From an uncultured Gammaproteobacteria bacterium (GTDB lineage Bacteria; Patescibacteriota; Microgenomatia; PFEM01; CAYPPS01), in NCBI GenBank assembly GCA_964655765.1, contig CAZZNI010000002.1:1-63628 (forward strand): a stretch of DNA of 63,628 bases, in the 5' to 3' direction. This document shows positions 6,033 through 59,106 of the stretch, piece by piece. Each line of letters opens with the position of its first letter. Position 1 is the first letter of the stretch. The notes under the pieces are model-generated. The model made no database searches. It was not told the DNA's origin and was given only the letters and a program-made list of their open reading frames with translations. The position numbers and the translations under genes are program-made.

Positions 6033-6036
6033 AAAA

Positions 6037-7056
6037 ATGGGCAAATCCAAAATTGTTGTTGCCGTATTTGTCTTTTTGCTTGCCCTTGTTACGGTTAAAT
6101 TGTTAACTTCGCAATTTACCAATCCTGAAAAAGAGCTTGATAATCAAGCCAGCCAACTACAAGAAAATTTACAAGAGGTTGTTGTCAATGACTCCGGTAA
6201 AAAATTGATGGTTTTAAAGGATGTTGGTGAGCCGTTCATGGATTTTTTTGGTTTAAGTGATAATGATTTCAGATTGATTTCTTCGGCTGGTTTTAATCTT
6301 ATCGAAAGTACTTTTGATATTTGTGCTACCGATGAAGATGTCGCTTATTTCCTTAATAAGGCCAATGAGTATGGGCTTCAGATAATCATGACAGCTGGTG
6401 CCGGTGAAGCGGAGTGGGGTTACAGTTGTGACGAAGTTGCCCTGGCCGATCAAAAGCCAGTTTGGCAAAAAGAAGCGGTTAAAAACTGGGTTAACAAATG
6501 GAAAGGGAATAAAGCAATTTATGCCTGGGATATTTCCAATGAAGCCGGTTCGGTTTTCCCTAACGCAGACAACCGATATTATTTAACCGCTGATCAATTA
6601 AAAGAAGCTTATCAAACAGTTAAAGAAGCTGACCCGACAAGGCCAGTGATAATTCGGATGAACGGCTGGTTCTTTTACGATTACGAAAGTAATTTCTTTC
6701 GGGCCGGTAATCCTTTTACGACTGATGTAGCTGATATTGTTATGATAAATGCCTATTCTAATGTTGAAGACTATTTTGATGATTTCGTTTTTACGGTGAC
6801 CCAAAGAGCCATCAATTCAATTGGTGAGATTGATTCTGACATTAAGCTTATTATTTCCCTTGGGGTATGGGAGGAAAAACCACTTTGGTTCCGACCGACG
6901 GCCGCGCAGATTAAAAACGACTACAATAGTTTAAAAAATTTTGACATTTTGGGGGTGGCCTATTTTAAATATGGGGCAAAGAATAGCGAATGGTACTTAC
7001 CGGATTACAAAACTATTTGGGACGAACTGCAAAAATTAAACCTCGAGACAAATTAA
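6037..7056 (+). CDS. Membrane-anchored glycoside hydrolase (clan GH-A-like TIM barrel)
   Basis: N-terminal TM; WDISNE acid/base motif followed by VKEADPTRPV. Confidence 0.7.
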   Translation: MGKSKIVVAVFVFLLALVTVKLLTSQFTNPEKELDNQASQLQENLQEVVVNDSGKKLMVLKDVGEPFMDFFGLSDNDFRLISSAGFNLIESTFDICATDEDVAYFLNKANEYGLQIIMTAGAGEAEWGYSCDEVALADQKPVWQKEAVKNWVNKWKGNKAIYAWDISNEAGSVFPNADNRYYLTADQLKEAYQTVKEADPTRPVIIRMNGWFFYDYESNFFRAGNPFTTDVADIVMINAYSNVEDYFDDFVFTVTQRAINSIGEIDSDIKLIISLGVWEEKPLWFRPTAAQIKNDYNSLKNFDILGVAYFKYGAKNSEWYLPDYKTIWDELQKLNLETN

Positions 7057-7075
7057 TCCAATAAACCTTTGTTTA

Positions 7076-7786
7076 TCATTTTTTCCCGGTTAGAAGTTTT
7101 CTAGTTGTTTCCCTAACAGCAATTTTAGGTAAATCATTTTCATTTTTTTTCAAATATCCTTCCACTTCTTGCCGGTAATTTTTAATCATACTTCGCAGTA
7201 ACCAGGAAATTGCTTTGGTGATTAGGATATCTTTTTCGTTTTTAAGTCGATCAATGGCTAAAAAAGCAATCTTGGAAAGTCGGTTGTCTTTTACCTGTTT
7301 TGCCGATTTTACCAATAAAACAAGGCTAGCTCGTCTTTTGTGAACATTTTTGTCTTTAGAAAATTTGTTAATCATTTTTTGCCACTTTGGCCAGTTATTT
7401 AAAAGTTCATTACTGGTAAAATTGGATTGACAAATTGAGTCAACCTCAGCCCAGCCTTGTACCTGGCCAAGCCATTTGTCAAGGTTTTCGGGTTGTAGCT
7501 GTTTTCTTAATTTTGGTGCATATCCTAACAACCTGCCGATCATACTAATTTCTTCGTGAGATCTACCCAAGCTTAATGAATCAAGTAGTTTGATGTAATC
7601 CATTAGCGATAGTTTTGGATGAGTTTTTATCCAATTCTTGGCAATTTGTTTTGAAACTTCGGCTTTAAGTTGGTAGCTGTGTTTGGTTGAGCCAATATAG
7701 TTTTGGTTCCAGCAATGTTGAAGCTTAGTGTCTTGGCCTTGGTATTTTTTTATTGCTTTTAAGATTTCTGCGTGGTATTTATCCAT
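7076..7786 (-). CDS. DNA alkylation repair protein (AlkD-like HEAT repeat)
   Basis: GWAEVD, HKRRASLV, ITKAISWLLRS motifs. Probable start MDKYH at 7786. Confidence 0.8.
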   Translation of the reverse strand: MDKYHAEILKAIKKYQGQDTKLQHCWNQNYIGSTKHSYQLKAEVSKQIAKNWIKTHPKLSLMDYIKLLDSLSLGRSHEEISMIGRLLGYAPKLRKQLQPENLDKWLGQVQGWAEVDSICQSNFTSNELLNNWPKWQKMINKFSKDKNVHKRRASLVLLVKSAKQVKDNRLSKIAFLAIDRLKNEKDILITKAISWLLRSMIKNYRQEVEGYLKKNENDLPKIAVRETTRKLLTGKK

Positions 7787-46335: not shown

Positions 46336-46722
46336 GTGGGGAAAATAATTGGCCGGTGGCTGCTGCTTTTGGTAATTGGCCTGGTTTTATTTTTATTAAT
46401 CAGGTTGTTTTTAACTTGGGGCAGGAGTGACATATTAACCGGTCAAGTAGGTAATTTTGCCAGTCAAACAGTCAGCCGAGCGCTTGAAGCTGGCGGCCAG
46501 GTTTTAGGCACTTGTCTGGACCAGGCGCCGATTGACCCAAAAATAAAGGAAACGGTAATTAAAAGCGGCAGTGTTTTTTCTTCCGATAATCAAGAAAAAC
46601 CACTGGAAAAATTAAGCCCTGAAGAAATAGGTGAGGCTGTTAAGGCCCTACCGGCTAATCAAGCAAAGGAGATTAAAAAAGAGATTTTTGGCGATTTTTG
46701 CCAGGAGATATTAGATGACTGA
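46336..46722 (+). CDS. Membrane-anchored hypothetical protein
   Basis: GTG start, N-terminal TM, GQVLG; overlaps the prfB start. Confidence 0.65.
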   Translation: MGKIIGRWLLLLVIGLVLFLLIRLFLTWGRSDILTGQVGNFASQTVSRALEAGGQVLGTCLDQAPIDPKIKETVIKSGSVFSSDNQEKPLEKLSPEEIGEAVKALPANQAKEIKKEIFGDFCQEILDD

Positions 46723-47722
46723 TTTAGAAACACGATTAAAAGCCGTTAAAGATAAACTGAAAATCAATCAATTAAAGGAAAAGGTTGTCGATTTGCAAAA
46801 ACAATCGGGAGAGCCATCGTTTTGGCAAAACCATGAATTGGCGGCTGAAAAAATGAAGGAATTGGCGGATTTACAAAAAGAGATTGAACAGTTAGAGCAA
46901 ATTGAACAACTGATTCAAACCGGTGATGAAGTTCAGGCGACTCGATTACTGGATAAGTTTGAATTAAAAACTTTTTTGTCTGGTCATTTCGATTCTTCAA
47001 TGGCGATTGTTTCGATTCATTCCGGACAAGGTGGAGTGGAGGCGATGGACTGGGCAATGATGTTAAAAAGAATGTATTTAAAATATTTTGATTCAGTTGG
47101 CTGGCCTTATGAAGAAATTGAAGAAATTAGCGGGGAAGAAGCCGGCATTAAAAGTACCACCGTCAAAGTTAACGCTGCCTATGCCTACGGTTTTTTAAAA
47201 CATGAAGCCGGGACTCATCGGTTAGTTCGTCAGTCGCCTTTTAACGCCGATGGTTTACGGCAGACATCTTTTGCTTTGGTAGAAGTATTGCCGCAGATAA
47301 AAGAAGCCGGTGAGATTGAGTTGAAGAATGACGATCTTGATTGGCAGTTTTTCCGATCTTCTTCTCAGGGTGGCCAAAATGTTCAAAAGGTTTCAACTGC
47401 CGTTCGGTTGATTCATAAACCCAGCGGTATAGTGGTGACTTCTCAAGCTCAGCGGTATCAGGAGCAAAACCGGAAAATTGCCTTGGAATTATTACGATCC
47501 AAATTATGGGAACAACAGGAGAAAGACAGAAAAGAACAGCAAACGGAATTGAAAGAAGGCCGGACTCAAGCTAGTTGGGGAAGCCAGATCCGTTCTTATG
47601 TACTTCACCCTTACAAACTGGTTAAGGACACTCGAACCGGTCAGGAAAGCAGTAGCGCTGAAGCGGTTTTAGACGGTCGTTTAGACGAATTTATTGAGAC
47701 TGAAGTTCGCCAGCTTGAGTGA
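46715..47722 (+). CDS. prfB: Peptide chain release factor 2 (no programmed frameshift)
   Basis: SPF anticodon motif, GGQ, QIRSYV; continuous ORF. Confidence 0.95.
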   Translation: MTDLETRLKAVKDKLKINQLKEKVVDLQKQSGEPSFWQNHELAAEKMKELADLQKEIEQLEQIEQLIQTGDEVQATRLLDKFELKTFLSGHFDSSMAIVSIHSGQGGVEAMDWAMMLKRMYLKYFDSVGWPYEEIEEISGEEAGIKSTTVKVNAAYAYGFLKHEAGTHRLVRQSPFNADGLRQTSFALVEVLPQIKEAGEIELKNDDLDWQFFRSSSQGGQNVQKVSTAVRLIHKPSGIVVTSQAQRYQEQNRKIALELLRSKLWEQQEKDRKEQQTELKEGRTQASWGSQIRSYVLHPYKLVKDTRTGQESSSAEAVLDGRLDEFIETEVRQLE

Positions 47723-47764
47723 GTTGTTTAAATTGTGTTATTATCAAAAAAGCTTTTAACAGAC

Positions 47765-48262
47765 ATGGAAGAAGGTTACAACGAACAATCTCCAGTTAAG
47801 GATTTTTCCGCTTCGAAAGACGGTAATTTTGTTAAGTCGGTTTTAGCGCCGGCGCTGATCATTGTCGCTTTAATTATTACCGGTGGAGTAAGCGGTTATT
47901 TTCTCTCCGGCCAGACTTCGACTGTTGGCCGTAGTGTTGGCATTAGTAATAATGACGGCAAGGTCAGTAGTGGCGGTGTGCCGAAGGAAGCCGGGGTTAA
48001 CAACCCAAGCGTTTATAAAGATCAGGCGGCTGGTCGGTTGGAAGAAAACACGAATAAAGATGTTCCTGAGGGCAGTCATAAACTAATTCGTCCCGGCGGT
48101 GACGATCAAACCGCTTATTTGACCAGCTCGGTGCTAGATTTAGACCAATTTTTGGGACAGTGTATTGAGATTTGGGGGCAAACTTACGCCGCTCAAAAAG
48201 CTGGCTGGTTAATGGATGTTGGTCGAGTTAAACTTTTAGATTCTTGCCCCGAAGGGCTTTAA
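47765..48262 (+). CDS. Membrane-anchored hypothetical protein (OB-like C-terminus)
   Basis: Single TM then EGSHKLIRPGG...AGWLMDVGRV. Confidence 0.7.
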   Translation: MEEGYNEQSPVKDFSASKDGNFVKSVLAPALIIVALIITGGVSGYFLSGQTSTVGRSVGISNNDGKVSSGGVPKEAGVNNPSVYKDQAAGRLEENTNKDVPEGSHKLIRPGGDDQTAYLTSSVLDLDQFLGQCIEIWGQTYAAQKAGWLMDVGRVKLLDSCPEGL

Positions 48263-48279
48263 GATTTAAGACTGCCTTA

Positions 48280-48960
48280 ATGATATCTTTTGAGCAAGTT
48301 GATAAAACTTTTGGCCAGCTTGCGGCTTTAGACCAGGTTAATTTTGAACTAAAAGAAGGGGAATTTGCTTTTCTGGTTGGTCAAAGTGGCGCTGGTAAAA
48401 CCACCTTACTTAAATTACTGTTGAGAATTTATACTGCCTCGGCCGGCAAGGTTACTGTTGACGGTACCGATTTAAGCGAAATTAAAAAAAATAAAATTCA
48501 TCTTTACCGACGGAAAATCGGTATTGTTTTTCAGGATTTTCGCCTTTTGGCGGATCAAAATGTTTTGGAAAATGTTTCTCTGCCGTTAAAAATCGCCGGT
48601 AGTGATCCGGCGGTGATTGAAAAGGAAGCCGAAGAAGCGCTCGATTTGGTTGGTTTGAAAGACCGCTTGCTGTCTTTCCCTTCCCAACTATCAGGCGGTG
48701 AGTTGCAGCGGGTTTCTTTGGCCAGATCAATTGTGGCCAATCCGGAAATTGTGCTGGCTGACGAGCCGACTGGTAATCTGGATATTGAAACCGCCAGAGA
48801 CATTATTGGTCTGCTTAAAAAAATAAACCAGTTAGGCAAAACCGTTATTGTGGCGACTCATAATTTTGACATAGTTGACGAAATGAAAGAAAGGGTTTTA
48901 GTTTTAAAAAATGGTAAATTAATTAGTGATGAGAAGAGTGGCAAATATAAATTAGAATGA
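48280..48960 (+). CDS. ftsE: Cell division ATP-binding protein FtsE
   Basis: GQSGAGKT, VFQDFRLL, LSGGE, ADEPTGNLD; upstream of ftsX. Confidence 0.92.
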   Translation: MISFEQVDKTFGQLAALDQVNFELKEGEFAFLVGQSGAGKTTLLKLLLRIYTASAGKVTVDGTDLSEIKKNKIHLYRRKIGIVFQDFRLLADQNVLENVSLPLKIAGSDPAVIEKEAEEALDLVGLKDRLLSFPSQLSGGELQRVSLARSIVANPEIVLADEPTGNLDIETARDIIGLLKKINQLGKTVIVATHNFDIVDEMKERVLVLKNGKLISDEKSGKYKLE

Positions 48961-49832
48961 AAGACCACCTGCACACTACCTGGATATATATTCGCCGGTC
49001 GCCTTATCAGGCGGTAGCGGCTGTGCTGGTAATGTTTTTGGCTTTTTCGGCCGTCAGCGCATTTGTGATTTTAGCCAGCGGTTCACAAATCATTTTGCGC
49101 TATTTTGAGACCAGGCCGCAGATCAGCGCCTTTTTACAGGACGACACCACCTTGGCTCAAGTGGAGACATTGCGAAGCCAATTAGAGACAACCGGTAAGG
49201 TTAAAGAGATTAGATATATCAATAAAGAAGAAGCGCTGGATATTTATAAAAACCTTTTTGCTCAGGAGCCGCTGCTTTTGGAGCTGGTGACGGCTGATGT
49301 TTTGCCGGCCTCACTGGAAGTTTCTACTCAGGAGATTGAATACTTAGGTGAAATAGCGTCTGTCTTACGAGCTTTTCCTCAAGTTGAGGATGTTGTTTTT
49401 CAGGAAGATGTAGCCCAATCATTACAGCAGTGGACAGTAATTTTACGGCAAGTGGGGATTGGATTAATTGCCTTGTTTAATTTGGTTTCTATTTTAGTTG
49501 TTATTATTGTTGTCGGTATTAAGGTAGTTAACCACAAAAAAGAAATTGAAACACAGCGTTTACTTGGCGCCAGTAGCTGGTATGTCCGACTGCCGTTTTT
49601 GTTTGAAGGTATGTTTTACGGCGCAGTTGGTGCCGTTTTGGGCTGGGGGGTTTGTTTCCTGGCCTTGCTTTATTCAACACCGTTGTTAGTTGACTTTTTA
49701 AGTGAAATTCCTATCCTGCCGGTGCCCGCTTGGTTTATGCTGTCGCTTTTGGGAGCAGAGCTGGCTTTGGGACTGTTGGTTGGTTTTGTGTCTGCCTTTT
49801 TAGCCACTAAGCGCTACTTAAACCAACCGTAG
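48957..49832 (+). CDS. ftsX: Cell division permease FtsX
   Basis: TM, extracellular loop (LPASLEV), LLGAS...LPFLFEG, three further TM. Confidence 0.92.
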   Translation: MKDHLHTTWIYIRRSPYQAVAAVLVMFLAFSAVSAFVILASGSQIILRYFETRPQISAFLQDDTTLAQVETLRSQLETTGKVKEIRYINKEEALDIYKNLFAQEPLLLELVTADVLPASLEVSTQEIEYLGEIASVLRAFPQVEDVVFQEDVAQSLQQWTVILRQVGIGLIALFNLVSILVVIIVVGIKVVNHKKEIETQRLLGASSWYVRLPFLFEGMFYGAVGAVLGWGVCFLALLYSTPLLVDFLSEIPILPVPAWFMLSLLGAELALGLLVGFVSAFLATKRYLNQP

Positions 49833-49847
49833 GCAATTATTAAAAAA

Positions 49848-51068
49848 ATGACGGTCGTTAAGAAAATTTTCTTACCATTATTGCTGTGTGTTTTGCCGCT
49901 TTTTTTTCTTCATTTTGGTTTTGCCCGGGCGATTGGGCTGAAAGACTGCGAAGAAAAATTGGGTAAAGGTGAGCTGGACTTACAAGAAGCTAGAGATTGC
50001 GAAGTTCTTTTGGACAGCCTTTATAAAGAAGCTTCGGCTAAAAAGAAAAGCCTGCAGTCAGAAGTTGCCCGGTTTAACGCCGCCATTGGCTTAACGACGA
50101 CAAAAATTTATTCGACCAACAAAGAAATTGAGACGCTGGAACAGGAAATTGTTAGCTTATCAGGCAAAATCGGTAAACTTGATCTTTCTTTAAATAAAAT
50201 TTCCGCTATTTTAGTTAGCCGGATTGTCCAAACCTATAAATCCGGTGCTCCTGACATGTTTTCGGTTCTTTTTACTTCCCAGGACTTAAGTCAGCTTTTT
50301 TCAAGATTAGCCTATTTACGGTCGGCCCAGCTTCATGACCGAGAACTAATGTTTGAACTGGAGTCGGTCAGGACTGACTTTGAGGACAGGAAAACTTTAA
50401 AAGAAGAAAAACAAACCGAATTGGAAGAGGCAAGAGTAAAACTGGAAAACCAAAAGGCCTTACTGGCAACCCAAAAAACTGACAAGGAACGGTTGCTGGC
50501 GGAAACCAGAAACAGCGAGGCTCGTTATCAGGAACTGCTGGCGACTTCCCGGGCAGAGATAGAAGCGATTCAGGGCATTATTGCCGGCCGGGGTCAGGAA
50601 ACACAGGCCGGTGGTGTTAATGAGGGAGAAAGAATCGCCAGTATTATCCCTGGTGCTTCAGCTTGTTCAACCGGTACTCATTTGCATTTCGAGGTTCGGG
50701 AAGGCAATAATGTTAAAAACCCACTCAGCTTTTTGACAAATATCAGCCTTGATAATTGTTCGGGGTCAAGATGCGGCAGTGATGATGGTGATCCAGCACA
50801 GGGCACAGGCGATTGGAATTGGCCGTTAAATGATCCGGTTAAGTTTAATCAGGGATTTGGTTATTCTAAGGCAATTGCCTCTGGTTATCTTTGGTACTCT
50901 TCTCATACTGGTATTGATATTGCTTCACCCGATTTGATTGTCAAGTCGGTTAAAAGAGGCCAACTTTACCGAGGGGCGATTGGTTGCGGCGGCGGAACCT
51001 TGCGTTATGTTCGGGTTGATCACGATGACTCGGATATTGATACTTATTATTTGCATGTTAATTATTAA
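49848..51068 (+). CDS. Coiled-coil murein hydrolase/activator (EnvC-like) with permuted M23 domain
   Basis: Signal, long coiled coil, STGTHLHFEV then HTGID...YYLH; follows ftsEX. Confidence 0.8.
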   Translation: MTVVKKIFLPLLLCVLPLFFLHFGFARAIGLKDCEEKLGKGELDLQEARDCEVLLDSLYKEASAKKKSLQSEVARFNAAIGLTTTKIYSTNKEIETLEQEIVSLSGKIGKLDLSLNKISAILVSRIVQTYKSGAPDMFSVLFTSQDLSQLFSRLAYLRSAQLHDRELMFELESVRTDFEDRKTLKEEKQTELEEARVKLENQKALLATQKTDKERLLAETRNSEARYQELLATSRAEIEAIQGIIAGRGQETQAGGVNEGERIASIIPGASACSTGTHLHFEVREGNNVKNPLSFLTNISLDNCSGSRCGSDDGDPAQGTGDWNWPLNDPVKFNQGFGYSKAIASGYLWYSSHTGIDIASPDLIVKSVKRGQLYRGAIGCGGGTLRYVRVDHDDSDIDTYYLHVNY

Positions 51069-51092
51069 AAAATGAGCTAATTTCTTAATCCC

Positions 51093-52211
51093 ATGCCTGC
51101 CCCGAGTTTAATTAAACTTGCTGTTGGTTTTTTGACCGCCTTGGCGGTCTTTTTCTTTTTTAAGGGGCAAATTTTGGCCCAGGTAGTAATAAACGAGTTT
51201 TTGCCCAATCCGTCCGGCAGTTCCAGTGAATTAGACGAGTGGGTAGAACTTTATAATTCAGGCGAAGAACCGGTCGATCTCTCCGGATGGAAGTTGGATG
51301 ATATCGCTGACGGGGGAAGCAGTCCGTACCAATTTAGCAGTGAGACAATCGCCCCCAAAGGCTTTTTGGTTTTAACTAAGGGAGAAACAGGAGTTGCTTT
51401 GAATAATTCTGGTGATAGTGTTCGTCTTTTAGACAAAGATGGTAACGCAGTTGATGATTGTGTTTATGAAGCTGATATCGGTGAGGATAAATCTCTTGCC
51501 CGTGTTCCGGACGGGGGTAGTGTTTGGTTTATTCTGGAGAATCCAACCAGAGGTGGAACAAATTCTTCACAGGCGGTGACTGGTAGCCCGACATCTGGCC
51601 CCACTTCAACAAGTTTACCCACCCCGACGGAAACAGTTAAGGCAACTTGTCTTGTTAATTCACCAACCGACCCGTCCGGTAATGTGCTAACTAGCGTAAA
51701 AATTTATGTTGACGGGCAATATATTCACCACTACGCTCCGGAGAGTTTGTCTTTTGGGTCGGACTGTTTTTGCGATGACGACAAGCAAATTTCTTGCGAT
51801 TTTGGCAAGCATACAATTACCTTGGAAAAAAACGGTTATGAACCGAAAACAATTGAAAAGGAATTTTCACCGGGGACGAAGACTGAAGTGAATCTGGTTT
51901 TGGATAAAATGGCGGTGATTATTGCCGGGAATACTTCGACTCCGACTCCGACTCCAACCTCGTCTCCTGGCTCGACATTGGCTTTGGCCGCTACTTCAGC
52001 CAGATTATCCTCTGACTCGGGAGAAGTTTTGGGCCAGACTGCTACCGAAAGTGCTTTTTATCCTTTGGAAGGCAGTCGAGCCGCTGTTGCCTCGTCAACG
52101 CCGGGCGTTGAGGCAAAAGGACAGTCATTTTGGCCGTGGGTGATTTTAAGCAGTGGTTTTGTTTTTCTTTTTTCTGCCGCCTTTTTGGGTTACAAGCGTC
52201 TCACACCCTGA
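51093..52211 (+). CDS. Lamin-tail domain surface protein with PEGA-like domain and C-terminal TM
   Basis: VINEFLPNP, EWVELYN, DLSGWKL, LNNSGD; PT linkers; GEVLG. Confidence 0.85.
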   Translation: MPAPSLIKLAVGFLTALAVFFFFKGQILAQVVINEFLPNPSGSSSELDEWVELYNSGEEPVDLSGWKLDDIADGGSSPYQFSSETIAPKGFLVLTKGETGVALNNSGDSVRLLDKDGNAVDDCVYEADIGEDKSLARVPDGGSVWFILENPTRGGTNSSQAVTGSPTSGPTSTSLPTPTETVKATCLVNSPTDPSGNVLTSVKIYVDGQYIHHYAPESLSFGSDCFCDDDKQISCDFGKHTITLEKNGYEPKTIEKEFSPGTKTEVNLVLDKMAVIIAGNTSTPTPTPTSSPGSTLALAATSARLSSDSGEVLGQTATESAFYPLEGSRAAVASSTPGVEAKGQSFWPWVILSSGFVFLFSAAFLGYKRLTP

Positions 52212-52929
52212 AGGTGTGATAAAAATATCTTATGATGATTAGAAAAACTCCTTTAATTACAAATGAAATTTACCATGTCTATAATCGTAGTGTTGCCCAA
52301 CAGCCGATTTTTACTGGTGATAAAGAATGCCGACACTTTTTAGATTTAATAAATTTTTATCGATTTAAAGATAATTCTTTGCGTCTTTCTTATTTTTCGA
52401 GGCTTCCGGCAAAAAATAAAGAAAAATATTTGTCCTCTCAGTATTTATCGGAGGAACATGTTAAGGTACTCTCTTTTTGTATTATGCCTAATCATTATCA
52501 TTTTTTATTAGAGCAAAGTATTGATTTCGGGATAACTAATTTCTTGAAGTTAGTTCAGAATGGTTACGCTAAATATTTTAATATTAAATTGAAAAGATCC
52601 GGGGCTCTTTTTTTCCATTCTTTTAAAGCAGTTGGAGTGGAGAACGAAGAGCAGTTTTTGTACACAGCACGTTATATTCATTTAAACCCTCTCACTTCTT
52701 TCTTATTAAAAGCGCCTGAGGAATTGAAGACTTATGAATGGAGCTCTTATTTTGATTATATTTCCGATAACCCGCGCCCCTTTATAGATACAGAAAAATT
52801 GACTAGTTTGCTTAAAACAAAGGACGCCTTTGCACGATTCACATTGAATCAATTGGATTACCAAAGGAAACTAGAGCAAATTAAACACCTCTGTTTTGAA
52901 GATTAGCCTTCACACCTTCAGGGTGTGAT
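52201..52929. mobile_element. REP-associated tyrosine transposase element bounded by inverted palindromes
   Basis: Left TCACACC-CTGAA-GGTGTGA (~52201-52219) and right TCACACC-TTCAG-GGTGTGA (~52910-52928) are exact reverse complements. Confidence 0.8.
52232..52906 (+). CDS. REP-associated tyrosine (HUH Y1) transposase
   Basis: YHVYNRS, CIMPNHYHFLL (HUH), YIHLNP, YEWSSY. Confidence 0.9.
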   Translation: MMIRKTPLITNEIYHVYNRSVAQQPIFTGDKECRHFLDLINFYRFKDNSLRLSYFSRLPAKNKEKYLSSQYLSEEHVKVLSFCIMPNHYHFLLEQSIDFGITNFLKLVQNGYAKYFNIKLKRSGALFFHSFKAVGVENEEQFLYTARYIHLNPLTSFLLKAPEELKTYEWSSYFDYISDNPRPFIDTEKLTSLLKTKDAFARFTLNQLDYQRKLEQIKHLCFED

Positions 52930-52986
52930 AAAGTGTGACAGTCTTTTTCTTTTTACCAGCGCCTTTTTAGGTTACAATCGTTTAAA

Positions 52987-53370
52987 GTGAAACGGTTTTT
53001 ATTTTATCTTAATCGCCTTCTGCCGCCGGTTTTATGGATGGCGGTTTTGTTTTATCTTTCTTCCATTTCCAATTTAAAAGCGGTAGCTGATCCCCAGCAA
53101 GATGAATTATTAAGAACCGTGGCTCATTTTCTTTTTTATACCGCAGGCTATGGATTATTTTTCCGAGCCTTCTTGAGCAAGAAAGCTAATTACATTTTAC
53201 CGTTATTACTGGTTTTACTTTATGCTCTTTTTGATGAAATTCACCAACACTTCGTTCCGGTACGAACTTTTCAATTACAGGATTTATTAGTTGACGGACT
53301 GGGAGCCTGTTTGGGATTAATAATTCTACAAGAGCAGCGATTGGTTAAACTAATTGGCCGACTGGGTTAA
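52987..53370 (+). CDS. VanZ family membrane protein
   Basis: WMAVLFYLSS, AHFLFY, YALFDEIHQHFVPVR, DLLVD. Confidence 0.9.
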   Translation: MKRFLFYLNRLLPPVLWMAVLFYLSSISNLKAVADPQQDELLRTVAHFLFYTAGYGLFFRAFLSKKANYILPLLLVLLYALFDEIHQHFVPVRTFQLQDLLVDGLGACLGLIILQEQRLVKLIGRLG

Positions 53371-53453
53371 TCATTAGGCTACTTCTTGACAGTCCTTTTT
53401 AAAAAGGTTATTGTTGCTTTAATGCCCTCCGACCTGGAGGGTTTTTAAGTCTT

Positions 53454-53627
53454 ATGAAGCAGTCGAAACAATTAACTTTCGGACCTAGATTATTGGACGA
53501 CCTGAGTCAGTCTTTAAAGACATTGGAGGGGTGGGGCAGCGTTGAAATTTTTGTTCAAAATAATAAAATTACTCAAATTTCGGCCCGTAAAATTAAGAAA
53601 ACCAACCATTCGGTAAAATCACTATAA
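53454..53627 (+). CDS. DUF2292/YezD-like small protein (57 aa, below the ORF-track cutoff)
   Basis: MKQSKQLTFGPRLLDDLSQSLKTLEGWGSVEIFVQNNKITQISARKIKKTNHSVKSL; the GSVEIxVQxxxITQI pattern; own TTGACA-17-TATTGT promoter at 53386-53414. Confidence 0.75.
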   Translation: MKQSKQLTFGPRLLDDLSQSLKTLEGWGSVEIFVQNNKITQISARKIKKTNHSVKSL

Positions 53628-53655
53628 TCCCCGGTAAATCGCTCCTTTGTTAATC

Positions 53656-53785
53656 TTGACAACGGGTAAAAATTACTATAATGTAATTGTAAAGCTAGAG
53701 TTTAATAACTTATAGTTTTATTACTATAAGACGCTGACCGCAAACGGAGGCACCTGAAAATTTTTTGGGTGTCTCTTTTGTTTTT
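53656..53785 (+). promoter_or_regulatory. Promoter plus overlapping hairpin/terminator leader
   Basis: TTGACA at 53656 with TATAAT/TAATGT at 53677-53684; GCTGACCG-CAAA-CGGAGGC (53733-53751) overlaps terminator GAGGCACC...GGTGTCTC-TTTTGTTTTT (53747-53785). Confidence 0.7.
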
Positions 53786-53943
53786 AAACTTTAACTTGCC
53801 TGTATGAGAATTAGTAATCTGCCCAAAACACCAGGCTTGTTTTCGGTTCCCACAGCCCAACGGCTATTTTTTGTCCCCTTTTTATCTTTTTCAGAACTTT
53901 TTTCAACTAGAATCTTTTCAAACGGAAAGGAGGTGAAGAAATA

Positions 53944-54486
53944 ATGAAGAAATTAATTGCTTTTTTAAGTGCTACTTTAATGTTGGTGGCAGTTGCCGCT
54001 CCGGCTTTAGCTGGAAGCCCTTGTGGGCAGTGCAAGCTGCCGAAACAAGGTATCTGTTGTCCAAGTGTTGAAATCTCAAACGACAACATGGCTGTTGTAA
54101 CAACTGGCGCTACATCTTACAGCAATAGTGGTGGTAATACTCAGACAAATACAGGTATGTCTTTGGGTAGCAGCAATAGTATTGTTGCTGGGGATTCTTA
54201 TTCGACAGCTCTATCCGCTAGCCAAGTTAACAGCAATACTAATACTGTTAGGACTTGGAACTCAGTCGGTGGAGTTGAGGTTAGGAATGGAAACGGAGCC
54301 TTTGTAGTGACGGATGCTTTTGCTGATTCTAACAGTGGCAGAAATAGCCAAACAAATACTGGTTTTAGTTGTGGTACTAACACAATTCGGACTGGTCTGT
54401 CTAATTCTTACTCTGATTCGCTTAGTATTGTTAATAGTAATACTAATACGGTCAGGAGTTGGGGGACTTGGGTAATGCCAAGATAA
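53944..54486 (+). CDS. Secreted Asn/Ser/Thr-rich two-repeat protein (candidate fibre subunit)
   Basis: Perfect SD, signal peptide, Cys-rich N-terminus, two ~65-aa repeats. Confidence 0.8.
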   Translation: MKKLIAFLSATLMLVAVAAPALAGSPCGQCKLPKQGICCPSVEISNDNMAVVTTGATSYSNSGGNTQTNTGMSLGSSNSIVAGDSYSTALSASQVNSNTNTVRTWNSVGGVEVRNGNGAFVVTDAFADSNSGRNSQTNTGFSCGTNTIRTGLSNSYSDSLSIVNSNTNTVRSWGTWVMPR

Positions 54487-54495
54487 TCTGTTTTT

Positions 54496-54544
54496 ACTGG
54501 CAGGGCGCGGGGGGAGCTTGACTTCCCTCGGCCCGGTGGCCAGT
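54496..54544 (+). terminator. GC-rich intergenic stem-loop
   Basis: ACTGGC...GCCAGT outer stem with inner GGGC/GCCC and GGGAG/CTTCC pairing, followed by TTT. Confidence 0.6.
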
Positions 54545-54582
54545 TTGTTAAGTTAGTTTTTTAGATTTAAATAAGGATAATT

Positions 54583-56988
54583 TTGAAAGGTAGACTGTTA
54601 AAAAGATTACTTAGCTGTTATTTAAGCCTGTTTTTACTTCTCGGGCCTTTCTTTTCCGTTTTGCTTTATGCTCAAGAGAGCGAACCGTCGTCAGCAGAGG
54701 AAACAGTAGTTGTTGTGCAAGAGAGTTCGCCTGTCGAAGAAATAATAGAAACAGGCGATGCCGTTTCCGTTAGTGATGGCTTAACTGAAGTTAATCAGAA
54801 TGTTAATTTAATCGAAGAAACCGTAACTGATGAAACAACTGACGAGTGTAGTGATGATTGCCTTGTGGTTGAAATTGAAAACAGCAATCAGGCGACAGTT
54901 GCCGCTCAAGTTGAAGCCGAAGCCAACAGCGGTGACAACTCGATTGAAGTGGCGACCGATTCAGCCGGTTTAGAGCAGGCGGTTATTGACACCGGTCAGG
55001 CTTTAGCGGTTGCCAATAACGCGGTGGTGGTTAACACCAATCTTACCGGCAGTGATTTTGAATATTCTGTTTTAACTGATGAAGATTTATCAGGCGGAGC
55101 TGATTTTTCGACAAATTGGCAGGAATTTGAAGAAGAAGCTGGCAATCAGAATAGCAGTGCTCAAGTCGTGGTAGTGGCAAATGAAAATTTAGCCGATGTT
55201 AATTTGACCACCGTGGCAATTGCCAACAGCGGTAACAATTTAATCGATGGGGCGGCGATTGGCCAAATCGAAACCGGTGACAGTATTGCCCTGGCAAACA
55301 GTGTTGCCATTGTTAATACTAATTTCACCAACAGTGAATTTCTTTACACGGTTATTAATATTTTTGACACCCTTGAAGGTGACTTGGTTTTCCCCAGCCC
55401 TGACTATTTTTTAGCTGATAGCCAGGCGGTAGTTTTATCATCGGAGATTGAAATTATCAACAACAACAAGGCTGGGGTTGATAATCAAACAATCAGCAGC
55501 GCCGATAGTGGCGGCAATTTGATTACCGGTAATGGTCAATTAATAATCGAGACCGGTCAGGCAGTGTCAGTCAGTAATGTTTTTAACTGGATTAACCAGA
55601 ATTTTGTCGGTGTTTCTTTTTTTAGCCTGCTTTTTAATAATTTTGGAAACTGGGACGGGCAGCTGCTTAATTGGCAGGGCGCTGGCACTGTTACTAATTT
55701 AGGTCAAGGCAGTTACTTGTTCCAATTTGGTAGTCAACCGGATGAGTCGGTTGGTGTTGTTAACCAGAATGACTGCTGTTCTGCGCTAGCGGTAGAAAAT
55801 GAAAACCAAGCAACAGTTAATACCACTACTACCGCCTCGGCTGTCAGCGGTGATAATATTATTTCCGGTTTGGGTAACGGTGAGATTAAAACTGGCCAAG
55901 CCTTGGCGGTGGCTAATTCGACCAGTGTAGTTAACAGCAATTTTGTTAACAGCAAAGTCTTTTTTGGCATCTTTAACTTATTTGGGCTCTTTAAAGGCAA
56001 CCTGGTTTTTGCCTATCCTGATTTGGAAATTGAGATCACTGATAATCGGGATGAAGTTTTACCTGGTGAGGAATTGGCTTATGTCATCCATTATCGTAAC
56101 TCTGGCCAGGCACCAGCCAGAAATGTGACCATCCATCAACAAACAAACCCTCAGCTTAATTTGTTGTCTGTCAATAGTCCGCAGCCGGTTGTTAACGGCA
56201 ATGATTTTGACTGGTTTTTAGAAGAACTGGCCCCGGGTCAGGAAGGTAAAATTACCGTTGTGATGGAAGTGGCTGGCGAGGCGGTTGAAGATGATTTGGT
56301 CAGTCCGATTATTATCGAAAGCCAGGATCAAGACATTGACAGGGAAAATAATTTTGCCCAGGATTTAACCAGATTAGTTTTTCCTGATCCACAGCCAGCT
56401 TCGGTACCTGATAATGATCAAGACAATGACAACACCAGTAATGACAACAACAACCAGCCGGAATTAATAATTACTTCTTCTAATAATGTCGCTGATTTTA
56501 TTTATCCCGGTGACAGCTTGCTTTTTAAAGTGGTAGTTAAAAATCAGGGTGATGGTTTGGCGGAAGATGTGCTGTTATTTAACCAGCTTTACAACCAGAT
56601 CCCCGATCCTTTAGATGAAGCCGGGTTACCGATTGGCAACTTGGAACCAGGCGAGGAAAAAGTAATTGAATTTGGCTATCAGTTGCCGGCAGACCCCACT
56701 ATGGTTCACCCCGGCACTTACCGACTGGAATCGTGGCTGGAGGGTAGTAATGTTGCCGGTGATTTAGTTTTTTCGTCTGTCAGCAAAACTTATTTTCAAG
56801 TTAGACTAAAGAATCAGACGGCCGGATTAATTGAAACGGTTCAGGCGGCTGAAAACGAACAAGTTTTGGGAGCATCTCAAGCTTGTTCAGGTTCTGACAG
56901 TGAAGAAAAATTGCTGCCCTACTTATTGCTTTTTGCTATGTCTGGCCTTTGGCTGGTGGAAAAGGGTCGGCGGTTTTTAGTAAATTAG
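54583..56988 (+). CDS. Large surface protein: Asn-rich repeats, two DUF11/CARDB-like Ig domains, C-terminal TM
   Basis: Repeats NxNxAxV...[AS][ND]SGxN...IxTGxA; YVIHYRNSG and FKVVVKNQG domains; EQVLGAS, TM, KGRR. Confidence 0.8.
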   Translation: MKGRLLKRLLSCYLSLFLLLGPFFSVLLYAQESEPSSAEETVVVVQESSPVEEIIETGDAVSVSDGLTEVNQNVNLIEETVTDETTDECSDDCLVVEIENSNQATVAAQVEAEANSGDNSIEVATDSAGLEQAVIDTGQALAVANNAVVVNTNLTGSDFEYSVLTDEDLSGGADFSTNWQEFEEEAGNQNSSAQVVVVANENLADVNLTTVAIANSGNNLIDGAAIGQIETGDSIALANSVAIVNTNFTNSEFLYTVINIFDTLEGDLVFPSPDYFLADSQAVVLSSEIEIINNNKAGVDNQTISSADSGGNLITGNGQLIIETGQAVSVSNVFNWINQNFVGVSFFSLLFNNFGNWDGQLLNWQGAGTVTNLGQGSYLFQFGSQPDESVGVVNQNDCCSALAVENENQATVNTTTTASAVSGDNIISGLGNGEIKTGQALAVANSTSVVNSNFVNSKVFFGIFNLFGLFKGNLVFAYPDLEIEITDNRDEVLPGEELAYVIHYRNSGQAPARNVTIHQQTNPQLNLLSVNSPQPVVNGNDFDWFLEELAPGQEGKITVVMEVAGEAVEDDLVSPIIIESQDQDIDRENNFAQDLTRLVFPDPQPASVPDNDQDNDNTSNDNNNQPELIITSSNNVADFIYPGDSLLFKVVVKNQGDGLAEDVLLFNQLYNQIPDPLDEAGLPIGNLEPGEEKVIEFGYQLPADPTMVHPGTYRLESWLEGSNVAGDLVFSSVSKTYFQVRLKNQTAGLIETVQAAENEQVLGASQACSGSDSEEKLLPYLLLFAMSGLWLVEKGRRFLVN

Positions 56989-56990
56989 AA

Positions 56991-58172
56991 ATGAAAATGA
57001 AAAAAATAAAAAAACTTGGCCATCTTTTAGTATTACTGATTGTTATTTCCATTTTCTTTTTTTCCATCTATAAAATTGCCGCTTTAACCGGTTTGGGTCG
57101 ATTAAATGTTTTTGGCTTTAATTGTGATATTTGTAACGATTGTTTTTGCGATATTTGCGATGATTGCGGCCCATGTTGCCCAACACCAACCGAGGAACCG
57201 GAGCCAACTCCAACTGAAGAGTTATCTCCGTCACCAACGCCTATTGAAGAACTTTCGCCAACACCGACTTTAACGCCAATCCCAACTCCAACTTTGCCTT
57301 CCGAATCGGGTAATGGAGATAGTGCCAATGGTGATGTTGGTGGTGCTTCGGCGCCGGTTTGCGGTGAGGAAAAACCAGGAACGCCAATATTAACTTCTCT
57401 TGAAAAAATTAGTGGTGATCAGACCAAGTTAACTTGGACAACGGCCGACCGGGCAACTGGTTATTCTATCGCTTACGGTCTTTCGTCCGGCAATTATCAG
57501 TTTGGACTTGATGATACCGGTTTAGTTAATCAGTTTGCTATTGGCGGTTTGGATGCGGGGGTCAATTATTGTTTTGTCGTTCGGGCCAATAATAACTGCC
57601 AGCCGGGTGATTTTTCTAACGAGCTTTGCCAGAGTCAGCCTTCCGGTTGGGGAGGCGACCAGGTTTTGGGGGCATCAACTTTGGCAGCCACCGGCAGCAG
57701 CTTGAATGATTTTATTTTTAACTTAAATACAGTTGAGCAAAAAGCAGTTGATTGGTTTAATTTAACGGTCTTTGACCGGCAGCTGCCGGAAAGAATTGTT
57801 ATTGACGACCTAAAGATTGATTTACCGGTTAACTTAACTAAATTAAGAGATGGCCAGTGGCCGGTTGCCGCTTCTGAAGCTAATTTCTTACTTGGTTCAA
57901 CACTACCGGGCCAGTCTGGTAATGGCATTTTTTACGCTCATAATAAAAACAATTTGTTTGGTTCTTTAAATCAGATTAAACCAGGAAATGACATCACGGT
58001 TGTTACGCCGGAAACAAATTATACTTATGAGGTATTTGAAATATTAACGGCTGAAAGGGACGATTTGTCAATTTTAGAAAAAGGGGACGGTCAAATTATT
58101 ACTCTTTTTACCTGTACCGGCCCTAATGACAGCCAAAGACTGGTGGTTAAGGCTAAATTGAAACAGGGGTAA
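56991..58172 (+). CDS. Sortase fused to Cys-rich segment, PT linker and fibronectin type III domain
   Basis: TM, CDICNDCFCDICDDCGPCC, FN3 (LTW...Y...YCFVVRANNNC), VLGASTLAATG, then sortase FYAH / ITLFTC / QRLVVKA. Confidence 0.85.
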   Translation: MKMKKIKKLGHLLVLLIVISIFFFSIYKIAALTGLGRLNVFGFNCDICNDCFCDICDDCGPCCPTPTEEPEPTPTEELSPSPTPIEELSPTPTLTPIPTPTLPSESGNGDSANGDVGGASAPVCGEEKPGTPILTSLEKISGDQTKLTWTTADRATGYSIAYGLSSGNYQFGLDDTGLVNQFAIGGLDAGVNYCFVVRANNNCQPGDFSNELCQSQPSGWGGDQVLGASTLAATGSSLNDFIFNLNTVEQKAVDWFNLTVFDRQLPERIVIDDLKIDLPVNLTKLRDGQWPVAASEANFLLGSTLPGQSGNGIFYAHNKNNLFGSLNQIKPGNDITVVTPETNYTYEVFEILTAERDDLSILEKGDGQIITLFTCTGPNDSQRLVVKAKLKQG

Positions 58173-58194: not shown

Positions 58195-59106
58195 ATGGAC
58201 CTGTCATTAAGGCATCTTTTTACCCCTCACCACAGTAATAATTATCGTGCCCGGGTTTTACACCCTTCTGTTATTTCTCTGTTTGCCAGTTTCTTTTTGC
58301 TTTATCAGTTTTTTATTAATTTTTACATTTTTTCTTGGCCGTCGGTTTTAGGTTTTGCTTCTAATGTTACCCCGCAAAAAGTCGTTGAACTGACTAACCA
58401 GAAACGGGCTGAAAATGGCCTACTGCCGTTAAAAATTAATGAACAGCTTAACCAAGCGGCGCAAAGAAAAGCGGCTGATATGTTTGCCTTTAATTATTGG
58501 GCCCATATTTCGCCTTCAGGCCGCCAGCCGTGGGATTTTTTCCATGAAGTCAATTACCGCTATGTTTACGCCGGTGAAAATTTAGCCAGGGATTTTATGG
58601 ACTCATCGGAAGTAGTTGAAGCTTGGATGCGCTCGCCAACCCATAAGGATAATATTGTTAATTCACACTATCAGGAAATCGGCTTAGCAGTAGTTAACGG
58701 CACCCTGGACGGAGTGGAAACAACTCTGGTAGTTCAATTGTTTGGTACGCCAGTCGAGACTCAAGCAAGCAAACCGGCAATTCCGCCGATAGCCCAAGCG
58801 GCCGAACAGCCGGTTAAGTCAGCGGTAATCAGTGAGGAAAAAACAGATGAGGTTGAAAATCAGTTACCGCCGGCAATTTATTTTCAGGAAGAAGAACAAA
58901 CATTCCCGGCTTTTTCGCCTTTTTGGCTGACTAAGATAGCGGCCATTTTCCTTTTAGGCTTAATAATTGGAGCCTTGTTGTTGGATTTAATTCTGGTTTA
59001 TAAGTTCAATGTTGTTAGGCTTTCCGGCCGAACGGTTGGCCATTTAATTTTTATCACTGCTTTATTGATAATAGTTTTATTAACTGACGCCGGAACAATT
59101 ATTTAA
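58195..59106 (+). CDS. CAP domain membrane protein
   Basis: TNQKR, YWAH, AGENLA, WMRSPTHKDNI; two C-terminal TM. Confidence 0.9.
   Translation: MDLSLRHLFTPHHSNNYRARVLHPSVISLFASFFLLYQFFINFYIFSWPSVLGFASNVTPQKVVELTNQKRAENGLLPLKINEQLNQAAQRKAADMFAFNYWAHISPSGRQPWDFFHEVNYRYVYAGENLARDFMDSSEVVEAWMRSPTHKDNIVNSHYQEIGLAVVNGTLDGVETTLVVQLFGTPVETQASKPAIPPIAQAAEQPVKSAVISEEKTDEVENQLPPAIYFQEEEQTFPAFSPFWLTKIAAIFLLGLIIGALLLDLILVYKFNVVRLSGRTVGHLIFITALLIIVLLTDAGTII

Follow-up and report, generated by a model that had tools for sequence, protein, structure and literature searches.

The stretch of DNA analysed here, positions 1 to 63,628 of contig CAZZNI010000002.1 (GenBank assembly GCA_964655765.1; the window), carries on its forward strand three consecutive genes (53944–58172) that encode a small secreted protein made of two sequence repeats (gene 1), a large membrane-anchored protein with further copies of the same repeat (gene 2), and a sortase fused to a fibronectin type III (fn3) module (gene 3). 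Genes 1 and 2, called the cassette below, recur side by side in other genomes of the candidate phyla radiation (CPR; Patescibacteria) and are considered here as a possible surface-fibre system. The elements of these two genes are as follows (residue numbers refer to the encoded protein).

53926–53936, forward strand: Shine-Dalgarno (SD) sequence of gene 1, AAAGGAGGTGA, 7 nucleotides ahead of the ATG
53944–54486, forward strand: gene 1, secreted two-repeat protein of 180 residues with an ATG start; proposed polymerising subunit
Gene 1, residues 1–23: signal peptide, ending ...APALA and followed by GSP
Gene 1, residues 27–41: Cys-rich segment whose last residues are CCPS (CCPS at 54055–54066)
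54064–54261: gene 1 repeat 1 (residues 41–106)
54271–54471: gene 1 repeat 2 (residues 110–176)
54583–56988, forward strand: gene 2, 801 residues with a TTG start; proposed base or template
54745–54813: gene 2 half repeat (residues 55–77; single-repeat profile, E 1e-6)
54868–55047: gene 2 full repeat (residues 96–155; single-repeat profile)
55168–55329: gene 2 full repeat (residues 196–249; single-repeat profile)
55447–55617: gene 2 full repeat (residues 289–345; single-repeat profile)
55792–55944: gene 2 full repeat (residues 404–454; single-repeat profile)
56020–56361: gene 2 Ig-like DUF11 domain (residues 480–593; Pfam E 2e-12, 47.7 bits against a cut-off of 24.6)
56455–56814: gene 2 second Ig-like domain (residues 625–744; from the predicted model and structure matches)
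56914–56982: gene 2 transmembrane helix (residues 778–800), followed by KGRR

The two repeats of gene 1, each of about 65 residues and rich in Asn, Ser, Thr and Gly, can be aligned residue by residue, and the mature protein (S 17%, N 13%, T 12%, G 12%; subunit mass about 16 kDa) ends in ...VRSWGTWVMPR, without a hydrophobic tail. The C-terminal SWGTW and the Cys-rich N-terminus are conserved non-repeat ends among its close relatives. Gene 1 matched no Pfam family at E ≤ 0.1 and no NCBIfam family, and in the ESM Atlas it fell into no named cluster, the highest feature scores (0.86, for archaeal hypothetical proteins) lying below the meaningful level.

Gene 2 begins with the first possible start in its frame, which is also the only start that retains the signal peptide; upstream of it lies only a weak AAGGA. 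Its four full repeats match the single-repeat profile of the small family at E 1e-11 to 1e-14. Behind every repeat of gene 2 comes an aromatic segment of 25–55 residues, a kind of segment that gene 1 lacks. Pfam returned only DUF11 and DUF7619 for gene 2, leaving the repeat region unmatched (TIGR01451 scored 25.9 against a cut-off of 24), and a six-frame search of the whole 705-kb genome with gene 1 found the repeat in genes 1 and 2 only. In the predicted model of gene 2 (mean predicted local distance difference test score, pLDDT, 77.5; repeat modules mostly 80–95), a disordered linker separates the Ig-like domains from the transmembrane helix. The Ig-like domains align with CLIPPER (9ifr; Z 14.3, root-mean-square deviation 2.3 over 118 residues) and CARDB (3idu; Z 12.5, root-mean-square deviation 2.0 over 103 residues), and they resemble the pilin CnaB/Ig-like domains of EbpB, BcpA, SpaD and RrgB (Z 11–12.6); Foldseek and VIA-wide searches with the full model returned rows for this C-terminal half only and none for the repeat region. 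Since the C-terminal domains match the stalks of fibrillar adhesins and Gram-positive pilins, the membrane anchor would carry a stalk with the repeats at its distal end. Just before repeat 4, at 55774–55785, gene 2 carries the sequence DCCS.

A word-based search yielded only three close relatives of gene 1, and a profile of these three was used for an exhaustive HMMER search, which returned 180 cluster representatives at E ≤ 1e-3 and 32 at E ≤ 1e-10. Almost all of them fall between 145 and 200 residues; a few, gene 2 among them, have 420–930 residues. The aligned set comprised 97 small members with single-stretch matches of about 143–200 residues, all 97 of which have an N-terminal hydrophobic signal and exactly two repeats; a C-terminal hydrophobic segment (scored as a 15-mer) occurs in one. 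A C-x(0-3)-C pair is present in 83 of the 97, and CCP stands 2–3 residues ahead of the first strand in 23; disulfide locking or metal binding is a possible role for these Cys pairs before the repeat strands of genes 1 and 2, and for the Cys cluster of gene 3. No Pfam family was consistently matched across the 97 members, none of which matched the curlin or chaplin families, and the family profile run against PDB sequences hit only signal-peptide-like stretches and no relative.

The source annotation of the members is "hypothetical protein", from Moranbacteria, Microgenomates and Chazhemtobacterium, and in an even sample of 401 genomes from the phylum, that of the window among them, the family was present in 59, or about one in seven. 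Two scans of metagenome contigs found no relative; a scan of genome contigs found one locus (L055), with the family gene at the contig end. Among the literature matches listed for sortase, pili and amyloid in Patescibacteria or CPR, the repeat family is not mentioned; the supplements of PMC9600506, on gene arrays of secreted hypothetical proteins, and of PMC13278184 might bear on a prior listing. The repeat common to genes 1 and 2 is thus a family that has no Pfam entry, no solved relative and no literature that was found.

The arrangement of the two genes was compared across two sets of loci, the first consisting of 20 loci from the top of the profile-match list together with the window (21 loci), and the second of 20 further positive genomes, less selected, which were added because the first set came from the best matches. 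In all 21 loci of set one, an unanchored repeat protein (143–576 residues, two to five repeats) is encoded directly upstream of, and on the same strand as, a large one (581–1272 residues) that ends in a transmembrane helix followed by Lys or Arg. The same arrangement holds in 15 of the 20 loci of set two, the remainder being one reversed order, three loci without a large partner and one cut by the contig end, so that the small-then-large pair is present in 36 of 41 loci overall. Much of what a first-pass annotation of the window had described from the letters alone is borne out by these results: the small secreted two-repeat protein with its strong SD and a stem-loop behind it; the large protein with at least four repeats of the same type, Ig-like domains, a transmembrane helix and a weak TTG start; and the kinship of the two repeats, which are one repeat that belongs to no described family. 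Its further expectation that all three genes would be conserved together stands for the pair of genes 1 and 2 and only in part for gene 3, a sortase lying directly downstream of the cassette in five of the 21 loci of set one.

The single-repeat profile spans 63 positions and concentrates its information on alternate positions (1, 3, 5...21 and 38...60) in two segments, V-x-V-x-N-x-N-x-A-x-V-x-N-x-V-x-A-x-A-N-[ST]-G-x-N and I-x-T-G-x-A-x-A-x-A-x-A-x-N-x-V-N-x-N-x-T-x-V. In the repeat of about 63 residues, the first of two long strands runs into an N-[ST]-G-x-N turn, and a short loop leads from there to a T-G-x-A turn, after which comes the second strand; the strand positions that are conserved do not differ from one repeat to the next (Asn/Gly ladders). 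The Asn, Gly and Gln residues that are invariant in repeat 1 of the closest relatives (46, 48, 61, 63, 65, 67, 96, 98) have their counterparts 68 or 69 residues further on, in repeat 2. One conserved face of small residues and Asn, opposite a variable charged face, is what would be expected of a two-sheet stack with Asn ladders.

Structure prediction with AlphaFold2 (AF2) gave each repeat of the gene 1 monomer a strand of 20 residues at either end; between them lie two short strands, set off by a turn on each side. The predicted monomer resembles no globular fold: Foldseek found nothing in the PDB at E ≤ 0.001, the top row being a FapC structure (9u4u; E 0.036, probability 0.08, TM-score 0.12), and the VIA-wide search returned one of 48,161 chains at Z ≥ 2, the two-rung HELLF amyloid (Z 2.0, root-mean-square deviation 5.5, 49 aligned residues), a value that is not significant on a scale on which models without a known fold usually reach Z 7–8. 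When four copies of residues 38–180 were folded together, neighbouring copies were joined with interface scores (ipSAE, a confidence measure computed from predicted aligned errors) of 0.48, 0.44 and 0.42, and three controls all scored 0.00; the runs had at least 89% of contacts in common and partner pLDDT of at least 64. In the predicted interface, repeat 2 of one copy covers repeat 1 of the following copy, both over their full length and in register at an offset of 69 (pairs 116:47, 118:49, 122:53, 130:61 and 169:101), and as modelled it is an open-ended head-to-tail stack. These scores pass the mark set for the method; in the multimer calibration that mark was reached by 20 of 30 solved homomers and one of 23 monomers, figures that are only roughly valid for the four-copy job on gene 1 with its own alignment, since the calibration used two copies and other alignments. 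The solenoid or cross-beta stacking that had been suggested at first sight is consistent, at the level of prediction, with both the conservation pattern and the four-copy model.

Signals around gene 1 suggest that the two proteins may be made in unequal amounts. They comprise the stem-loop that follows gene 1 and a candidate RNA element that precedes it, together with the gene upstream of that element.

54496–54544, forward strand: GC-rich stem-loop between genes 1 and 2 (minimum free energy −33.3 kcal/mol, z −2.6; 4 of 200 shuffles fold as well)
53656–53786, forward strand: candidate leader or attenuator RNA of gene 1, with a promoter-like site, a hairpin, a 15-mer and a terminator-like hairpin
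53656–53682, forward strand: promoter-like site of the leader, TTGACA-15 nucleotides-TATAAT; the spacing is short, and the site is not on the scan's list
53736–53750, forward strand: conserved 15-mer of the leader, GACCGCAAACGGAGG
53746–53776, forward strand: terminator-like hairpin and T-run of the leader, from the terminator scan
53454–53627, forward strand: DUF2292 (YezD-like) gene, 57 residues (PF10055, E 1.8e-5, 24.7 bits against a cut-off of 22), immediately ahead of the leader

The stem-loop after gene 1 is not among the canonical terminators of the terminator scan and may act as a partial terminator or stabilise the 3' end. All 20 loci compared have a strong hairpin behind the first repeat gene (z −2.4 to −10.9); of 36 other same-strand gaps in these loci, taken as controls, 16 reach z ≤ −2.4 (median z −1.85), and the median minimum free energy per nucleotide is about −0.35 in the cassette spacers vs. 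−0.21 in the control gaps. GGAGGTG or a GGGGGTGA-like SD stands before the first repeat gene in most of these 20 loci, and most of the large genes have no SD in the preceding sequence, with start calls that are approximate. Both signals noticed at the small gene in the window, SD and hairpin, are therefore conserved, and their combination would fit differential expression, with the subunit abundant and the base rare.

The leader region folds strongly (53692–53792; −31.7 kcal/mol, z −5.6, none of 200 shuffles as good), and L055 conserves the stretch from promoter to terminator well and not the spacer after it. With up to two mismatches allowed, seven of 40 loci of other genomes have the 15-mer ahead of the first repeat gene and in its orientation, as do L055 and the window, the carriers including several distantly related genomes; the reversed pattern, used as a control, matched twice in 492 kb. 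The exact 15-mer occurs in eight of the 401 genomes, and seven of the eight matches adjoin a family gene. No Rfam family was matched in the leader at E ≤ 1, the only matches in the whole window being two tRNAs. Because in one genome the terminator ends about 40 nucleotides before the SD of the subunit gene, the element is more likely a leader or attenuator than a separate small RNA. RNAalifold proposes a core hairpin, GCYGACCG-CAAA-CGGAGGC, with two compensatory pairs in a rough alignment of nine sequences; by our own reading of the sequence, the 3' arm of this hairpin would use the GGAGG that otherwise forms the 5' arm of the terminator. A DUF2292 homologue lies upstream on the same strand in six of the 21 loci, the window included, and five of those six carry the leader 15-mer; a functional tie between DUF2292 and the leader RNA is conceivable.

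Gene 3 has the following parts.

56991–58172, forward strand: gene 3, fn3-sortase fusion, 393 residues from an ATG; the reading frame is open from TTG 56949
Gene 3, N-terminal part: transmembrane segment, nine-Cys cluster ending in CCPT (57174–57185) and Pro/Thr linker
57399–57620: fn3 domain (Pfam E 9e-5, 23 bits, just below the cut-off of 25)
57663–57695: VLGASTLAATG, sorting-signal-like, between the fn3 and catalytic domains
57795–58160: sortase domain (PF04203, E 7e-19, 68.2 bits against a cut-off of 26.6)

The most likely start of gene 3 is the ATG at 56991, 2 nucleotides past the TAG stop of gene 2, rather than the TTG at 56949. Its AHN, TLFTC and QRL motifs, with the His, Cys and Arg, align with three other sortases, and the aligned homologues of its fn3 domain score above the Pfam cut-off. 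Gene 3 falls below the cut-off of every NCBIfam sortase class from A to F (class D 37.1 of 140, C 34.7 of 160, E 28.9 of 160) and of the general TIGR01076 model (29.5 against 39.35). A frameshift artefact joining separate fn3 and sortase genes was rejected, as the same fusion occurs in a second genome (L040) and contigs of four DNA runs cross the junction without indels. In a split relative (L041), an fn3 protein (6032–6727) ends in VLGASTMAGTG, a transmembrane segment and KNFKK, and is followed by a separate, overlapping sortase gene (6666–7295); since the fn3 protein there carries a sorting signal ahead of a separate sortase, the fn3 module looks like the ancestral substrate of the gene 3-type sortase. 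In gene 3 the sortase thus appears to be fused to its own substrate, and self-processing at the fused linker is conceivable.

How far such a sortase serves the cassette is a separate matter. Sortases number one to six in each of the 51 family-positive genomes searched. In set two a sortase lies somewhere within the fetched stretch in four of 20 loci, and at least about 13 of the 51 genomes have one within about 5 kb of a family gene, as read from coordinates; this proximity exceeds a rough expectation of 2–3% (about 2.5 sortases per 1-Mb genome), yet is far from obligatory. Evident sorting signals in the window's genome are MPETG, LPESG and VPTSG. Gene 2 has no LPXTG-type motif, reading ...EQVLGASQACSGSDSEEK, the transmembrane helix and KGRR; where relatives have LPxTG or LAxTG it has QACSG, which was considered as a degenerate sorting motif and is not claimed as one. 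A true LPXTG-like motif on a cassette repeat protein was found, by simple motif search, in nine of the 41 loci, the motifs being LPATG, LPLTG and LPTTG; LPSTG and LPMTG on large repeat proteins of set one; and LPETG, LAGTG, LPNTG and LPATG in set two. Many loci also encode a third anchored repeat protein, in some cases with a true LPXTG signal. The first-pass reading of gene 3 as an fn3-sortase fusion holds, its start moved to 56991, with the sortase domain above the Pfam cut-off and fn3 just below it. The accompanying idea that sortase anchors the filament is not supported: gene 2 ends in a transmembrane helix and basic tail, only those five loci of 21 have the enzyme directly after the cassette, and the evident substrate in the split relative is the fn3 module. 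The role of the sortase in the window's genome is peripheral, and it probably handles fn3 or LPXTG-type third components, not the gene 2 product.

Several surface proteins, from the window's genome and from related loci, carry a motif [VI]LG[AQ] that precedes an LPXTG-type motif or a C-terminal anchor by 2–40 residues; it was observed at the following sites.

56860–56880: in gene 2
57663–57677: in gene 3
52080–52095: in the lamin-tail-domain (LTD) protein upstream of the cassette
G000 C2:27566–28204: in a further surface protein

We propose, as a plausible reading that stops short of a probable one, that genes 1 and 2 are the core of an undescribed surface-fibre system specific to CPR/Patescibacteria, in which a self-stacking subunit would be paired with an anchored paralogue. 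Each repeat would form one flat rung (a beta-arch) with its conserved small and Asn residues turned inward, and the rungs would stack in register. The gene 1 product, secreted and carrying no anchor, would contribute two rungs per subunit, and head-to-tail addition, with repeat 2 of each subunit resting on repeat 1 of its neighbour, would build up a filament of the cross-beta or solenoid-like kind, which the Cys pairs just ahead of the strands might lock. The gene 2 product, whose two Ig-like stalk domains would hold four rungs at their tip above a C-terminal membrane anchor, would be the cell-bound template or base. The strong SD and the leader with its terminator, together with the hairpin after gene 1, would provide for much subunit and little base, and the fn3-sortase would be a member of the neighbourhood in part of the lineages only.

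Several points weigh against this proposal. Assembly is predicted throughout: AF2 gave the monomer only moderate confidence (pLDDT 70.7, predicted template modelling score 0.42), no fold match confirms a solenoid (the FapC, CsgA and ice-binding solenoid rows being insignificant, with E 0.036 to 9.5 and TM-scores of 0.05–0.13), structure predictors tend to place repeats and beta-strands in register, and the beta-arch rungs were inferred from the pattern of conservation together with the DSSP strings and the list of contacts. Five of the 41 loci lack the canonical pair, set one was drawn from the top of the match list, and related genomes are not independent. The Cys-rich N-terminus and C-terminal SWGTW of the gene 1 protein, moreover, could cap a finite unit, which leads to the main rival explanation: a finite hetero-complex, in which the anchored four-rung region receives the small protein as two further rungs or as a cap, or the small protein pairs once with itself, and the whole would be a stalked adhesin with an exchangeable tip. 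The repeats common to both proteins and the tightly conserved gene pair would suit such a complex, the stalked architecture of gene 2 is that of fibrillar adhesins, and the conserved non-repeat termini of the small proteins could block further growth. The strong SD and the hairpin, however, suggest a large excess of the small over the anchored protein, the multimer model shows an open head-to-tail contact that uses both ends of the subunit, and the range of first-gene products, from two to four or five repeats by lineage, is easier to reconcile with a stack of arbitrary length; on balance we think a finite complex rather unlikely, if the most serious of the alternatives.

An abundant secreted subunit beside an anchored relative would also fit a two-dimensional coat or wall-associated matrix, S-layer-like or sheath-like, of the small protein tethered by the large one. 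Its subunits, flat and wide as inferred from the two strands of about 20 residues per repeat, could pack laterally, and the nearest analogue in function, the chaplins, make a layer of fibrils on the cell surface (PMC5618241); the only predicted interface, however, runs along the stacking direction, nothing in the results indicates a lattice, and a coat in place of a thin fibre seems improbable. Least probable of all, to our judgement very much so, are beta-repeat proteins that do not assemble and instead bind glycan, mineral, ice or a host surface, the gene order reflecting paralogy only. A composition rich in Thr, Asn and Ser and the presence of ice-binding solenoids among the weak Foldseek rows would suit that explanation, but those rows are insignificant (E > 2, TM-score < 0.1), it is the variable strand face that is exposed, with the conserved residues alternating as in a buried or stacking face, and a two-rung unit would be unlikely to be stable alone. 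The proposed fibre can also be carried further, to a functional-amyloid-like fibre of the CPR's own, in which two-rung subunits would polymerise on the stalked four-rung template under the gate of a conserved, hitherto undescribed leader RNA that switches between core hairpin and terminator, possibly with the DUF2292 protein, and which would mediate attachment to host cells in sludge, conceivably by cross-beta contact with amyloid envelopes such as the Methanothrix sheath; this fuller version we regard as doubtful.

Among known systems, the cassette is best read as analogous to chaplins and curli but unrelated to them by sequence. In Streptomyces, short secreted chaplins (ChpD-H) co-assemble with long ones (ChpA-C) that bear a sortase signal, and so tether an amyloid layer to the cell (PMC5618241). 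As in the cassette, small secreted subunits share a domain with larger cell-bound proteins; in chaplins, sortase is involved (PMC5618241). The likeness extends to the unanchored short form, gene 1, and to those relatives of the cassette whose repeat proteins bear true LPXTG-type signals. Unlike the long chaplins, gene 2 has a transmembrane anchor and KGRR in place of LPXTG, and Ig-like stalk domains in addition. The chaplin domain (Pfam PF03777/DUF320) was not matched in gene 1, in the repeat region of gene 2 or in the 97 family members; it is a hydrophobic domain of about 40 residues, whereas the cassette repeat has about 63 and is hydrophilic (rich in Asn, Ser, Thr and Gly).

Curli (CsgA as major subunit, CsgB as nucleator) and Fap (FapC and FapB) likewise combine a major subunit with a cell-associated paralogue, both built of imperfect strand-turn-strand repeats, rich in Asn, Gln, Gly and Ser, that stack as rungs. 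Fibril structures of FapC and CsgA were among the top, though insignificant, Foldseek rows for gene 1, but no homology was found: the curlin Pfam family is absent from gene 1, gene 2 and the 97 members, and the PDB sequence search matched nothing beyond the signal peptide. The cassette repeat is about three times the length of a curlin repeat, the anchor of gene 2 is a transmembrane helix on an Ig-like stalk, and outer-membrane secretion of the CsgG or FapF type would, to our knowledge, not be expected in the CPR cell type. The fungal prion solenoids HET-s and HELLF have two pseudo-repeats per subunit, one rung each, and stack head-to-tail, and HELLF was the sole PDB chain at Z ≥ 2 to the gene 1 model (again with the reservation that Z 2.0 is not significant); they differ in having rungs of about 21 residues and in being intracellular, eukaryotic proteins.

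Sortase-assembled pili of Gram-positive bacteria, also built by monoderm-type cells, have pilin domains of the CnaB/Ig-like kind that the gene 2 stalk resembles; the proposed major subunit, gene 1, differs in lacking a sorting signal. CPR bacteria have filament systems of their own in the Pam pili, whose pilins are two-domain Ig-like proteins of 38.7 and 55.3 kDa (a beta-sandwich and an open beta-barrel) joined by donor-strand exchange (PMC13278184). The 16-kDa two-repeat protein of gene 1 is unlike these, the distinction being drawn against that published description only (PMC13278184). No Pfam match of gene 1 to a subunit of the TasA/camelysin type was found, and a SipW-like S26 peptidase lies near the cassette in three of the 21 loci (L046, L051 and L052; searched with our own hidden Markov model), the match in the window being to the LTD domain only.

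The wider neighbourhood in the window consists of DUF2292, sortase, CAP, M23 peptidase, LTD, VanZ and IS200-like proteins. Downstream of the cassette lies one further gene of note.

58195–59106, forward strand: CAP-domain membrane protein (Pfam CAP, E 5e-17) with C-terminal transmembrane segments

A CAP homologue stands downstream on the same strand in five of the 21 loci, the window included, and other recurrent neighbours are a membrane protein of about 200 residues (six loci) and a subtilase (three loci). Upstream, at 49848–52211 on the forward strand, are genes for an M23 peptidase with a coiled coil and for the LTD surface protein (51093–52211); in other loci near the cassette, LTD is fused to the SipW-like signal peptidase (for example L046:12725–13762). 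An IS200-like Y1 transposase gene (52232–52906, forward strand; Pfam Y1_Tnp, E 1e-7) is absent from the otherwise syntenic L055 (about 70% DNA identity over window positions 46336–54006) and thus looks like an insertion in the window's genome. L055 itself, a contig of 14,743 bases, belongs to a bin labelled as a gammaproteobacterium, yet it is syntenic with the window and carries a CPR-type cassette, and is probably mis-binned or mislabelled.

A large part of bacterial diversity belongs to the CPR/Patescibacteria, whose cells live attached to other microbes and whose surface proteins are mostly annotated as hypothetical. If the proposal is true, the cassette would represent a new family of functional amyloid or solenoid filaments, unrelated in sequence to those described, in ultrasmall bacteria of the monoderm type, and a second natural case, after the chaplins, of a design that pairs a secreted subunit with an anchored paralogue; the leader RNA would count as a cis-regulatory element not described before, here serving a surface structure. 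The cassette would also offer a way to study how CPR cells build their attachment structures, with a 16-kDa subunit that should be easy to express and test.

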